Positions 7,522 to 10,641 are shown, numbered from the stretch's first letter. The stretch is DNA of 64,000 bases from an uncultured Gammaproteobacteria bacterium (GCA_964443495.1 CAYUCS010000001.1:341496-405495); one strand, 5' to 3'. Translations and numbers: made by a program. Notes: generated by a model from the sequence alone, not told the origin.

Positions 7522-7905
7522 ATGGATAACAACAACGTAGCGATTTACAGCTCCAAGATCATTGCCGATATCGTATGGGGGATTTTTTATTTTCCCTTGT
7601 GGTGGTATGGGGCTGGATTGCTCAAATTCATACTTACATTAGGTAAATTTATTGCCGAAAGGGAGCACGAAACCGGCTTTTTGGTCTGGCTCAAGAATAT
7701 CGGCAAGCCGATGTATGGGCAGAGCGACTTCGCCGGTGTCCTCATCAGTATCTTCATGCGGTTCATTCAGATTGTCGTCCGAGGCGTTATTATGCTTTTT
7801 TGGCTATTTTTAGCTATAATTTTTCTGGGTATTTGGATTTGTCTGCCAATCGTCACTCTTTACGAGATTTTTTATCAAATCATCCCTTCAGCTAATCATT
7901 TGTAA
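7522..7905 (+). CDS. Small integral membrane protein, unknown function
   Basis: 127 aa with 3-4 hydrophobic helices; stop lies 3 nt before the Clp-like gene start. Confidence 0.6.
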   Translation: MDNNNVAIYSSKIIADIVWGIFYFPLWWYGAGLLKFILTLGKFIAEREHETGFLVWLKNIGKPMYGQSDFAGVLISIFMRFIQIVVRGVIMLFWLFLAIIFLGIWICLPIVTLYEIFYQIIPSANHL

Positions 7906-7908
7906 ACA

Positions 7909-10641
7909 ATGGATTCGGAAAAGCAATTTATAATTTGTCCCGCCTGCAACGGTAGTGGCAAGCAAAAATTCGGTCTGGCTTGCCCTGAATGCAGCGGCCG
8001 TGGGGTCGGATTATCCGAGCGCGGCCATTTTTTCTACTGGGGGCTCCGGCTGGGTCAGGTCACGATTGGCCTGGGCTATGTGCGGGAGAAGATCGATCGC
8101 CTCATCAATTTCGCGGCTATCATGATCGGGCTGGTCGGGTTAGCGGCTTTCGGCTGGTGGTTTTTTGATAATGCCGAATATGCCTTGATGCCGGAGAACT
8201 TGCCATTCTGGTTCGAGCAGCACCCTTTGCTGCTGATTTTTTGGATCGGCGTCCTGGCTTGGATGTTCGTTTATTACCGCGTGAGCGAGGAGCCGATCCT
8301 GAAGCCGAAAATCGCCAAGCTCAAAGCCGATGAGCCGCCGTTGCCGGTGGCTGGCTGGGACGAGGCGATCCATCATCTCAAGGGCAAGTCGCAGGTCGAT
8401 GTCGTCAAGGGCTACAGCTTGAAGGCGATCGAGACGATCGAGGCAGCTTATTCTTTGGCACGGCAATATGACCACGCGGAGGTGACCGTCTTGCATCTTT
8501 TCGATTCATTGGCTCATGACGAGAATGTCGGGGCGATATTTTCCAGGCTGAACATAGATGCCAACCGGCTGGCCAAGAAATTCAAAAACCAATTGTCGAT
8601 GTTGCCCAAGTCCCAAGGCAACGCCTTGTCGCTTTCCAAGGAAGTGCGCCAAGTGCTGATCGAGGGCTACCTTGAGGCGCACGACCTCGGACAGTTGCGG
8701 GTCAAGCCCTTTAATCTCCTGGTGGCCTCCCTTAGGCACAACAATGTGGTCGAAGAGATACTGTATGAACAGGAAATAGATAATGACAAGCTCTCGAATA
8801 CCGTGCAGTGGTTCAGGATAAATGAGCGCCTGATCGAGGCTTACAAGGAATACCGCCACATGGCCCGTTTCAAGCCGTCTTCTAACATGGACAAAGCGTA
8901 CACTTCGGTGGCCACCCCATTCCTTAATAACTTCGCTCGCGACCTGACTTTGGCCGCCAAATGGTTCAAGCTCGAATTCTGCGTTTCACGCGAGAAGGAG
9001 ATGGAAGAAATTTTCGCCGCCTTCGAATCGGGAAAAAACGGCGTCCTTCTGGTGGGCGACCTGGGCGTCGGCAAGAACGCGATCGTCCACGGCTTGGCCC
9101 AGCTGATGGTCAAGGAGCAGGTGCCGAAATATCTGCAAGACAAGCGGCTCCTGGAGTTGGATATCAGCCGCTTGATTTCCGGCGCCAATCCGGCTGAAGC
9201 GCAAGAGCGCCTGCTGACCTGCCTCGACGAGATTACGCGCGCAGGCAACATCATACTGTATATCAATAATATCGAAACGATTTCCGGTATCACTTCCGGC
9301 GGGGAGCAAAGCTTGGACCTGACCGATGTCTTGGTCGGAGCGATCCAGCAGCATCGCTTGTTCTGCTTGGCGACCGTGACCAAAGAGAATTATCTGCGAG
9401 CGGTCGAGGGGCGGCCGATCGGCAATTCCTTCGGCAAGGTGACCGTGGCCGAACCGGGCCACAATCAGGCGATCATCATGCTTGAAAGCAAGGTCGGCTA
9501 TCTTGAAGGCGGGTACAAAGTGTATTTCACTTATAGCGCTTTGGACGAGGCGGTCAATCTGACCAGCAAATACGTCCACGACCGCTTCTTGCCAGCCAAG
9601 GCGATCGACGTGTTGGAGGCGGTAGCGGTCAAGGTATCAAAGAGCAAGGGTGACCGCATCATCACTCGCGAGACCGTCGATTTGCATATGAGCGAGATTA
9701 CCGGCATCCCTCTGACCAAGGTCGGCATGAACGAAGGCAAGGAGCTGATGACTTTGGAGAATAGGATCCATGAGCATATGATCGACCAGGTCGAAGCCGT
9801 CGATATGGTTGCCGCCAGCTTGCGTCGCGCCCGCGCGCAGCTGAATGAGGGCAAGCGGCCGATCGCCAACTTCCTATTTCTCGGTCCGACCGGCGTCGGC
9901 AAGACCGAGCTGGCCAAGACTGTGGCCAAGGTTTATTTCGGCAATGAGAAGTATATGATCCGTCTGGACATGAGCGAATATCAGGCACAGGACTCGATCG
10001 TCAAGATGATCGGCGACCAGACAACCAAAGGCTATCTGACCGAGGCGGTGCGCCAATCGCCCTTCTCGATCCTGCTTCTGGACGAGTTCGAGAAGGCCCA
10101 TCCAGATATCTTGAACCTTTTCTTGCAGGTCATGGACGACGGCCGTCTCACTGACGGGCAGGGGCATACGATCGATTTCACTAACTGCATCCTTATCGCC
10201 ACCTCCAATGCCGGGGCTTTGTACATCCAGGAGCAGATACGCAAGGGCACGCCGGTCGAGCAGATCAAAGAAGTCCTGATCAACGACCAGCTGAACAAGA
10301 TCATGCGCCCCGAATTGATCAATCGTTTCGACGGCGTCATCGTCTTCAAGCCGCTGTCGCAGAACGACGTAGTTGAGATCACCCGCCTGCTTTTGCGCAA
10401 GATCGAGAAGAACCTGAAGGACAAGGGCATTCGCATGCGGATGGACGAGCAGGGTATCGCTCTCCTGGCGCAGGCCGGCTTCGATCCGAAGTTCGGCGCC
10501 CGTCCGTTGCGCCGCCTCTTGCAGGACCGGGTCGAGAATGTCATCGCCAACAAGATATTGTCCAGCGAAGTCAAGCGACGCGACACGATCGTGATCGATG
10601 ATCAGGGTGAGGTGTCGGTCGAGGCTGCGCCGAAGATATAG
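7909..10641 (+). CDS. Membrane-anchored Hsp100/Clp-family AAA+ ATPase with an N-terminal DnaJ-type zinc finger
   Basis: CPACNGSG and CPECSGRG (CxxCxGxG pair), 2 TM helices, Clp_N repeats. NBD1 is degenerate (GDLGVGKN, ILYINNIE). NBD2 is canonical (GPTGVGKT, LLLDEFEKAH, NRFD, GARPLRR). Confidence 0.8.
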   Translation: MDSEKQFIICPACNGSGKQKFGLACPECSGRGVGLSERGHFFYWGLRLGQVTIGLGYVREKIDRLINFAAIMIGLVGLAAFGWWFFDNAEYALMPENLPFWFEQHPLLLIFWIGVLAWMFVYYRVSEEPILKPKIAKLKADEPPLPVAGWDEAIHHLKGKSQVDVVKGYSLKAIETIEAAYSLARQYDHAEVTVLHLFDSLAHDENVGAIFSRLNIDANRLAKKFKNQLSMLPKSQGNALSLSKEVRQVLIEGYLEAHDLGQLRVKPFNLLVASLRHNNVVEEILYEQEIDNDKLSNTVQWFRINERLIEAYKEYRHMARFKPSSNMDKAYTSVATPFLNNFARDLTLAAKWFKLEFCVSREKEMEEIFAAFESGKNGVLLVGDLGVGKNAIVHGLAQLMVKEQVPKYLQDKRLLELDISRLISGANPAEAQERLLTCLDEITRAGNIILYINNIETISGITSGGEQSLDLTDVLVGAIQQHRLFCLATVTKENYLRAVEGRPIGNSFGKVTVAEPGHNQAIIMLESKVGYLEGGYKVYFTYSALDEAVNLTSKYVHDRFLPAKAIDVLEAVAVKVSKSKGDRIITRETVDLHMSEITGIPLTKVGMNEGKELMTLENRIHEHMIDQVEAVDMVAASLRRARAQLNEGKRPIANFLFLGPTGVGKTELAKTVAKVYFGNEKYMIRLDMSEYQAQDSIVKMIGDQTTKGYLTEAVRQSPFSILLLDEFEKAHPDILNLFLQVMDDGRLTDGQGHTIDFTNCILIATSNAGALYIQEQIRKGTPVEQIKEVLINDQLNKIMRPELINRFDGVIVFKPLSQNDVVEITRLLLRKIEKNLKDKGIRMRMDEQGIALLAQAGFDPKFGARPLRRLLQDRVENVIANKILSSEVKRRDTIVIDDQGEVSVEAAPKI

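Follow-up and report, generated by a model that had tools for sequence, protein, structure and literature searches.

What is left of a Clp/Hsp100 machine when one of its two rings has lost its catalytic residues, when the loops that line its pore have been trimmed and when the whole protein has been tied to a membrane? The question is raised by a locus in a 64,000-nucleotide stretch of DNA deposited as an uncultured Gammaproteobacteria bacterium (GCA_964443495.1 CAYUCS010000001.1:341496-405495), referred to here, in its full length, as the window. A gene for a 910-amino-acid (aa) membrane-tethered Clp/Hsp100-like AAA+ ATPase (positions 7909..10641, plus strand) lies there directly behind a gene for a small polytopic membrane protein of 127 aa (7522..7905, plus strand), the two open reading frames (ORFs) meeting 3 nt apart as TAA-ACA-ATG. 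The answer to which we incline, tentatively and with a little less than even confidence, is that the larger protein is a remodelling ATPase, tethered to the membrane, driven by a single motor and independent of ClpP and DnaK, which has the small membrane protein as its partner in acting on clients in the membrane or envelope. It is an undescribed variant within the Clp/Hsp100 superfamily, and its public annotation is generic.

The 910-aa protein clearly belongs to the broad Clp/Hsp100 class I superfamily, an assignment that draws on the ORF itself, Pfam, NCBIfam, alignment with ClpC, an AlphaFold2 (AF2) model and Foldseek. Pfam recognizes AAA_lid_9 at residues 519-586 (1.4e-11), AAA_2 at 650-808 (1.8e-51) and ClpB_D2-small at 816-896 (3.3e-21). 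The AF2 model, built from 112 family sequences, reaches a predicted local distance difference test (pLDDT) score of 92 and a predicted TM-score (pTM) of 0.85. When Foldseek compares the model with ClpC and ClpB protomers, the target TM-score is 0.8-0.85 at a root-mean-square deviation of ~4 Å over ~580 columns, and the alignments to ClpC are full-length, at ~800 columns. With ClpA, ClpB and ClpC the protein shares an N-domain, a first nucleotide-binding domain (NBD1) with AAA_lid_9, a second (NBD2, AAA_2) with ClpB_D2-small and identical catalytic residues in NBD2, at a core identity of ~35-37 %. Membership in any known branch is another matter: the NCBIfam scores for ClpB (TIGR03346, 523.8 bits against a cutoff of 1232) and ClpA (468 against 993) are both under half of the cutoff, all equivalog cutoffs are missed by a wide margin, and the architecture is, as an initial annotation of this DNA had it, not that of ClpA, ClpB, ClpC or ClpX. 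The protein lacks the functional hallmarks by which ClpA, ClpB, ClpC and ClpE are defined. A reading as a defence system was rejected, PADLOC giving only a generic NBD2 likeness to ClpB-like PDC-M37B and DolB, with none for the neighbouring genes, in a housekeeping context.

How widespread this architecture is was assessed from three partly overlapping sets. A word-indexed homologue search with the 910-aa protein gathered 501 relatives, the top 120 of which measure 881-1018 aa and match at 95-100 % query coverage and 52-62 % identity. A phmmer search with the N-terminal 340 residues against 1.84 billion representative proteins returned merely 328 matches (184 at E ≤ 1e-10), so that the N-terminal module marks out what is, judged by sequence, a small family. 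Finally, two family-specific peptide patterns were run against GTDB at one genome per species and confirmed 213 loci, a lower bound, since these two patterns alone were used. Residue counts given below refer to 265 aligned full-length members from these sets, and neighbourhood counts to the best 80 of the 213 species loci. The architecture proved to be family-wide. Those among the top 120 relatives that carry a label are Falkowbacteria, Parcubacteria or Patescibacteria, and the cluster mates of both the 910-aa and the 127-aa protein are annotated just as 'AAA domain-containing protein' or 'hypothetical protein' from Candidatus Falkowbacteria, which fall in the Parcubacteria/Patescibacteria group; the exact 910-aa and 127-aa sequences are on record from a 772-kb NCBI contig, and the genome of the window is assigned to Candidatus Falkowbacteria; as far as its members are labelled, the ATPase family is confined to Patescibacteria. 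Literature searches on Clp proteins or FtsH of Patescibacteria, the candidate phyla radiation (CPR) or Parcubacteria, on membrane-anchored zinc-finger Hsp100 proteins, on the zinc fingers of ClpE and on CXXCXGXG combined with AAA+ found no description of a class I Clp with a transmembrane (TM) anchor or of such a family.

The first peculiarity is the state of NBD1 (8917..9648, plus strand), whose motifs were checked against Bacillus subtilis ClpC and against a canonical ClpB that adjoins the homologous locus in other Patescibacteria. The Walker A motif reads GDLGVGKN where ClpC has GEPGVGKT, Walker B reads ILYINNIE for ILFIDELH, the Arg-finger region PIGNSF for ALERRF and the pore loop SGAN-PAEAQ for AGTKYRGEFE; the alignment confirms the degenerate Walker A, Walker B and Arg-finger readings of the initial annotation and excludes that the motifs were misread. 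Across the family the catalytic Glu of Walker B survives in 1 of 265 members (Asn in 185, Asp in 61), the double Arg finger is left in ~9, and the pore Tyr (KYRG) is missing from every member inspected. The P-loop, on the other hand, is kept: its glycines are present in 264-265 of 265 and its Lys in 249, with Arg in a further 12, while the Thr/Ser that ends Walker A is found in 55 and replaced by Asn (95), Arg (40) or Lys (35) in others. The earlier description of this module as dead thus stood for the catalytic Glu and Arg fingers, lost in all but a few members, and did not stand for the P-loop; because G/G/G/K is conserved, 'nucleotide-binding but non-hydrolysing' is the better prediction. 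NBD1 also has 43 columns conserved at ≥0.9, which argues for a module that is maintained and not decaying.

These columns bear as well on the most prosaic explanation of the locus, namely a frameshift fusion of a zinc-finger/TM ORF with a degenerating ClpB or ClpC pseudogene. The lost catalytic residues of NBD1 are what such a gene might display. However, ~120 close homologues, at 99-100 % coverage, have the same single ORF, as do species genomes independent of one another; strong conservation extends to the degenerate NBD1, NBD2 is intact and the AF2 model is of high confidence. Conservation has already refuted this reading, to which we attach next to no probability, and with it the concern that the N-terminal Cys motifs and TM helices stem from a separate, misassembled ORF.

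NBD2 (9667..10641, plus strand) presents the opposite picture, as Pfam, the alignments and the family counts agree. Its motifs are canonical (GPTGVGKT, LLLDEFEK, TSN, the Arg finger R806 and GARPLRR), and Walker A, Walker B, sensor 1, Arg finger and sensor 2 are each retained in ≥263 of 265 members. Other elements are missing. The ClpP-loop region reads IRKGTPVEQ where ClpC has KYVGFNVQ, without VGF or IGF, and no (I/V)G(F/L) tripeptide occurs in this region in 25 family members inspected. The M-domain is absent too: residues 576-583 bridge positions 402-469 of ClpC, whose M-domain has ~68 aa (ClpB ~120 aa), alignment with the neighbouring ClpB leaves a gap of ~120 aa at the same place, and NBD1 (residues 337-580) continues straight into NBD2 in the AF2 model, without a coiled-coil insertion. 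The lack of both elements had been noted from the window and now extends to the alignments with ClpC and ClpB.

In ClpB, ClpA and ClpC, Tyr paddles of the pore-1 loops grip the substrate. The corresponding NBD2 loop of the window (GDQTTKG) lies in IGDQTTKGYLTE, against VGSPPGYVGYDEGGQLTE in ClpC/ClpB, and is 6 residues shorter than that of ClpC; in the AF2 model it comprises seven residues (702-708), and Y709 opens the next helix. Among 271 parsed sequences, nine of which are the neighbouring canonical ClpBs, 249 have an aromatic-free loop of 7-9 residues from which GYVG is deleted. Some 13 divergent members (P0134-P0251 in a 50 %-identity representative set) carry an aromatic-bearing loop of 8-13 residues, mostly 12-13, and several of these show a GAPPG[YF]-type motif. 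Because the pore-1 loops are trimmed in both rings, processive threading is disfavoured, and the ATPase probably does not act as a classical unfoldase.

The initial annotation had proposed exactly such an activity, a membrane-localised unfoldase or disaggregase, and this is the part of it that has become doubtful. In its explicit form the proposal holds that misfolded or aggregated (membrane) proteins are captured by the zinc knuckle and N-domain and pulled through the pore, much as by a membrane-bound ClpB or a protease-less FtsH, with Y709 as substitute paddle. Such a role is favoured by a double-ring Clp fold that matches substrate-bound ClpC and ClpB structures, by an NBD2 fully competent in its residues, by the GAPPG[YF] loops of the divergent representatives and by the conservation of Y709, a Tyr in 217 of 265 members placed in the first helix turn after the shortened loop; DnaJ-type zinc fingers are also known elsewhere to bind clients (PMC5915565). 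Against it speak an NBD1 pore Tyr absent throughout, a GYVG loop deleted in ~95 % of members, the want of an M-domain for coupling to DnaK and a complete canonical ClpB beside the trio at nine loci, all from one subclade, where the disaggregase niche is thereby filled. On balance we regard canonical threading as rather unlikely.

The N-terminal half of the protein sets the family further apart. Two CxxCxGxG motifs, CPACNGSG at residues 10-17 and CPECSGRG at 25-32, form a putative single C4 zinc knuckle (residues 10-32; 7936..8004, plus strand), which is predicted to be cytoplasmic and was recognized by Cys conservation, sub-threshold profiles and the AF2 model, in which short beta strands surround the motifs. 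The four Cys are kept in 236-238 of 265 members, far beyond chance, and together with the flanking Gly they predict zinc binding; the Anti-TRAP and DnaJ_CXXCXGXG matches at residues 10-40 remain under the Pfam cutoffs. The knuckle is followed by a membrane hairpin (8101..8283, plus strand), in which TM1 (~65-87) and TM2 (~106-125) flank a short acidic outer loop. Hydropathy peaks at residues 65-83 and 107-125 and AF2 helices at 50-87 and 106-131 agree on the two TM helices. Basic flanks on either side of the hairpin, together with an acidic connecting loop that contains zero basic residues, argue for an N-in/C-in topology with both the zinc knuckle and the ATPase in the cytoplasm. TM2 has a mean top-residue frequency of 0.60, against 0.64 for NBD1, and the hairpin positions G77, F111, Y123 and R124 are conserved at ≥0.9; conservation of this kind suggests that TM2 makes specific intramembrane contacts and is not a passive anchor.

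Between hairpin and NBD1 lies a Clp_N-like N-domain (residues ~162-320; 8392..8868, plus strand), identified by Pfam Clp_N, AF2 helices and Foldseek. The Clp_N repeats announced from the window fared unevenly: the fold is borne out by eight helices across residues 171-320 of the model, while sequence support is weak, one repeat (residues 180-226) scoring 22.4 bits, narrowly over the Pfam cutoff of 20.7. A family-specific linker, FKPxxxMD[KR]AYTxVAT (residues 321-336; 8869..8916, plus strand), leads into NBD1. With a mean conservation of 0.77 it is the highest stretch outside NBD2, and among the non-catalytic elements of the family none is more conserved than the sequence FKPSSNMDKAYTSVAT together with an invariant W301. 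The same linker is the sole low-pLDDT stretch of the AF2 model and is absent from the neighbouring canonical ClpB.

Each of these features has a partial counterpart among known systems. Compared with ClpC, ClpB and ClpA, the family adds a zinc knuckle and a membrane hairpin at the N-terminus, lacks the catalytic Glu, Arg fingers and pore Tyr of NBD1 and has its GYVG loop deleted; the M-domain that ClpB and ClpC possess is missing, as is the ClpP loop of ClpA and ClpC. ClpE, ClpX and ClpK/ClpG likewise place a Cys-rich zinc module ahead of a Clp ATPase. The zinc modules of ClpE, ClpX and ClpK are of the ClpX-type C4 or CCCH kind, not CxxCxGxG, and these proteins are soluble, with intact pore loops and an active NBD1 (ClpX having a single ring). 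ClpK also lacks the ClpP tripeptide, and its zinc module is putative (PMC2976762). The knuckle itself resembles the DnaJ zinc-finger domain, Anti-TRAP and FIP, in which two CxxCxGxG repeats give one C4 centre. DnaJ differs in having a J-domain and two zinc centres, made by four repeats, where this family has one centre, two repeats and no J-domain match, and the DnaJ zinc-finger model PF00684 reaches 15.6 bits here, its cutoff being 32.7; the likeness to Anti-TRAP is confined to the knuckle (PF15777, 25.6 against 32; NF058604, 24.1 against 65). In plants, FIP unites a membrane anchor with two CXXCXGXG repeats and has the membrane AAA+ protease FtsH5 as a binding partner (PMC5915565), whereas finger, anchor and AAA+ motor are joined here in one polypeptide. 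If FIP and other DnaJ-like zinc-finger proteins without a J-domain are a guide, the knuckle may bind clients or partners.

For the membrane anchor, the nearest parallels are FtsH and Msp1/ATAD1, in which an N-terminal TM segment sets the entry face of the ring against the cytoplasmic membrane, the arrangement that the predicted topology implies here as well. Both have a single classic-clade AAA module whose pore loops are aromatic, FtsH carrying an M41 protease in addition; the family consists instead of two Clp-type modules with trimmed pore loops, the homology is limited to the AAA+ fold, and a Peptidase_M41 domain is absent from the Pfam matches of the 910-aa protein. NSF-D2 and PEX1/PEX6-D1 offer a parallel to NBD1, being rings that keep the P-loop and have lost the hydrolysis residues. 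They belong to another AAA+ clade and have other partners, so that the analogy is functional only. An AAA+ ring with an intact P-loop and without catalytic Glu or Arg finger usually has an assembly role, as in NSF-D2 and PEX1/6-D1.

Two observations on gene content help to separate core from accessory features. The first concerns the neighbours of the ATPase. A homologue of the 127-aa gene, which the initial annotation had recorded as lying upstream, immediately precedes the ATPase gene, in the same orientation, in 69 of 71 species loci whose upstream DNA is long enough, and a gene for a WecA-like polyprenyl-phosphate N-acetylhexosamine (HexNAc)-1-phosphate transferase of the Glycos_transf_4 (GT4) family, 11144..12175 on the plus strand of the window, has a counterpart downstream, on the same strand and within 3 kb, in 55 of 56. 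ORF clustering of the neighbours singles out just these three genes as widely conserved, in 80, 66 and 65 loci; the next commonest (nusG, recR, L21 and others) occur in ≤24 of 80, and the flanks vary between genomes. Housekeeping genes surround the trio in the window: secE, nusG, rplK and rplA, divergently oriented, on the upstream side and L21, recR, a NUDIX gene and dnaB on the downstream side; elsewhere L27 and CTP synthase are found near the trio. No gene for ClpP, ClpX, DnaK or FtsH is found among the large ORFs of the window.

The second observation concerns a subclade without the zinc knuckle. Twelve or 13 species loci, and ~12 of 73 full-length representatives, encode members without the Cys motifs, a loss put at about a fifth of the family; these members retain the TM hairpin, and the small gene and GT4 accompany them at every locus whose flanks are covered. 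Since the knuckle is lost while hairpin and neighbours stay, it is an accessory element. Nine of the zinc-less loci encode a soluble ClpB of 877-895 aa at 0.5-3 kb from the trio (L063:2781-5420, L065:2360-5008 and L078:2812-5445, all on the minus strand, and further L066, L074, L075, L076, L079 and L081). The three that were aligned are canonical throughout, with GEAGTGKT, AGAKFRGEFE, ILFIDELH, ALERRFQ, an M-domain of ~120 aa and GSPPGYVGY (GYVG/GYIG). The membrane ATPase that such a ClpB adjoins is therefore a paralogue with its own role, neither a replacement for the disaggregase nor the sole Hsp100. The proximity of the two hints that they could have arisen by tandem duplication.

The 127-aa protein is itself highly characteristic, with YFPxWWY, WLKNIxxPMxGQxD and the pair R80/R87 invariant, the two Arg being seven positions apart on one face of a hydrophobic helix. 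It has zero matches in Pfam, NCBIfam or PADLOC, a word-indexed search returned 15 homologues, and its all-helical AF2 model, of moderate quality (pLDDT 77), finds no significant fold match with Foldseek. The GT4 protein matches PF00953 at 105 bits, over the cutoff; with NCBIfam scores of 113 bits for WecA (cutoff 326) and 69 bits for MraY (cutoff 192), it appears closer to WecA than to MraY and an equivalog of neither.

An ATPase so consistently accompanied by a glycosyl-phosphate transferase might be its dedicated regulator. According to this reading, the ATPase and the small protein together would form a regulator or assembly factor for the initiation of envelope glycopolymers, not a general quality-control device; it would govern the activity of the WecA-like transferase, its inactivation independently of turnover or its assembly into a complex, or handle its polyprenyl-phosphate-linked product. 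The gene arrangement speaks for it: the gap between ATPase and GT4 is ≤100 nt in 28 loci, often 0-25 nt or a 4-nt overlap, and the trio alone is conserved amid changing flanks. In addition, R80/R87 of the small protein would be compatible with binding a phosphate or lipid head, and an ABC exporter, a sortase, a prenyltransferase or a YkuD transpeptidase is encoded near the trio in some genomes. Adjacency by itself is no proof of function, however, as a fusion of GT4 with QueH illustrates, and in about half of the loci the two genes are 0.4-2.9 kb apart, with an opposite-strand ORF between them in the window. Nor are we aware of any Clp-type ATPase that has a glycosyl-phosphate transferase as its target. 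We consider a dedicated regulator somewhat unlikely. A bolder version, distinctly more speculative and in our judgement improbable, would make the trio a new envelope machine of Patescibacteria that has abandoned threading, the movements of NBD2 being passed through the hairpin and the Arg-bearing small protein so as to gate or drive a lipid-linked glycan step. If true, it would mean an AAA+ motor coupled to lipid-linked glycan biogenesis and not to protein unfolding.

The QueH fusion is found at L065:9011-10567 (plus strand), where GT4 and this epoxyqueuosine reductase, an apparently unrelated tRNA-modification enzyme, form one 518-aa ORF; similar long GT4 ORFs occur in L066, L069, L075, L076 and L078, and QueH is a separate downstream neighbour in L001-L003. 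The opposite-strand ORF of the window encodes 129 aa (10687-11076, minus strand), lacks a Pfam match and is preceded by a promoter-like site at 11135-11108 (minus strand) with 11 of 12 sigma-70 consensus positions and an extended -10. The 500-nt ATPase-GT4 spacer is not conserved, in DNA or in protein sequence, when compared with the corresponding gaps elsewhere, so that the trio hides no fourth conserved gene or RNA; the ORF may have been inserted in this lineage only, splitting the trio. On the plus strand, a scan for promoters and terminators around the operon yielded nothing informative.

Returning to the single-motor remodelling ATPase that we tentatively favour, its working can be sketched as follows. 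NBD1 would bind ATP without hydrolysing it and serve as a permanent assembly ring, in the manner of NSF-D2 or PEX1/PEX6-D1, leaving NBD2 as the sole motor. The Arg finger R806 would act in trans, and a trans-acting finger implies an oligomeric ring (a hexamer). With the hairpin in an N-in/C-in orientation, the N-terminal face of the ring, bearing six zinc knuckles and twelve TM helices, would be turned toward the inner leaflet of the membrane, as in FtsH and Msp1, and the conserved TM2 would touch the small membrane partner with which the ATPase would be co-translated. The protein would act as an ATP-driven device for remodelling, holding or release, or as a short-stroke extractor, as opposed to a processive threading unfoldase. 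It would find its clients in or close to the membrane, the most plausible being proteins of envelope biogenesis, for example the co-located WecA-like transferase, and action on them would be independent of ClpP and DnaK.

Several points weigh against this sketch. Y709 is widely conserved directly behind the shortened NBD2 loop, and could, as a pore paddle, mean that threading has been retained. The zinc finger is lost in a whole subclade and hence is not central to the core mechanism. The link with GT4 may reflect inherited gene order rather than function, given the GT4-QueH fusion and the unrelated minus-strand ORF, with its strong predicted promoter, that intervenes in the window. Finally, the nature of the client, the number of subunits and the touching of the small protein belong to the inferred side of the picture.

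A number of further observations were made on the window and its relatives. Many records of metagenome-assembled genomes (MAGs) with the trio (L011, L017, L018, L022, L027 and others; binchicken or SRP co-assembly third-party annotation (TPA) records) are titled 'uncultured Gammaproteobacteria bacterium'. Because these loci hold the same Patescibacteria-type trio, the title looks like a placeholder of bulk MAG submission, or a mis-assignment. Matches to Rfam in the window consist of three tRNAs and nothing else. At 28001-30000 the GC content drops to 0.33, from ~0.52 elsewhere, over a 416-aa ORF without a Pfam match (28311-29561, minus strand), and this island may have been horizontally acquired. 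An 888-aa beta-helix/CHB_HEX_C/Fn3-associated protein, probably at the cell surface, is encoded at 33408-36074 (plus strand) and followed at 36636-39149 (plus strand) by a gene for 837 aa, in which an ATPase domain of the VirD4/TraG type (type IV coupling proteins) is recognized. A nucleotide-metabolism cluster at 49-4032 (minus strand) contains unusual fusions: its ThyX, of 467 aa, has two Thy1 stretches, thymidylate kinase and dUTPase are fused in a protein of 401 aa, and the cluster also encodes a dCMP deaminase. Just past the cluster an SPFH/Band 7 protein is encoded at 4222-4977.

Patescibacteria (CPR) are ultra-small bacteria that account for a large share of bacterial diversity, are mostly uncultivated and have tiny genomes rich in proteins of unknown role. 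The family described here is a conserved paralogue, in a housekeeping context, of a well-studied machine, and it breaks the rules of that machine with a membrane anchor, one dead ring, trimmed pore loops and no coupling to a protease or Hsp70, a combination of features likely to surprise AAA+ specialists and presented in a testable three-gene module. Its two conserved partners provide an experimental handle on membrane and envelope homeostasis in Patescibacteria. Should the ATPase still remodel proteins, it would represent a minimal, single-motor Hsp100 mechanism at the membrane; should it not, the Clp scaffold would have been reused for a different, possibly envelope-related, task.

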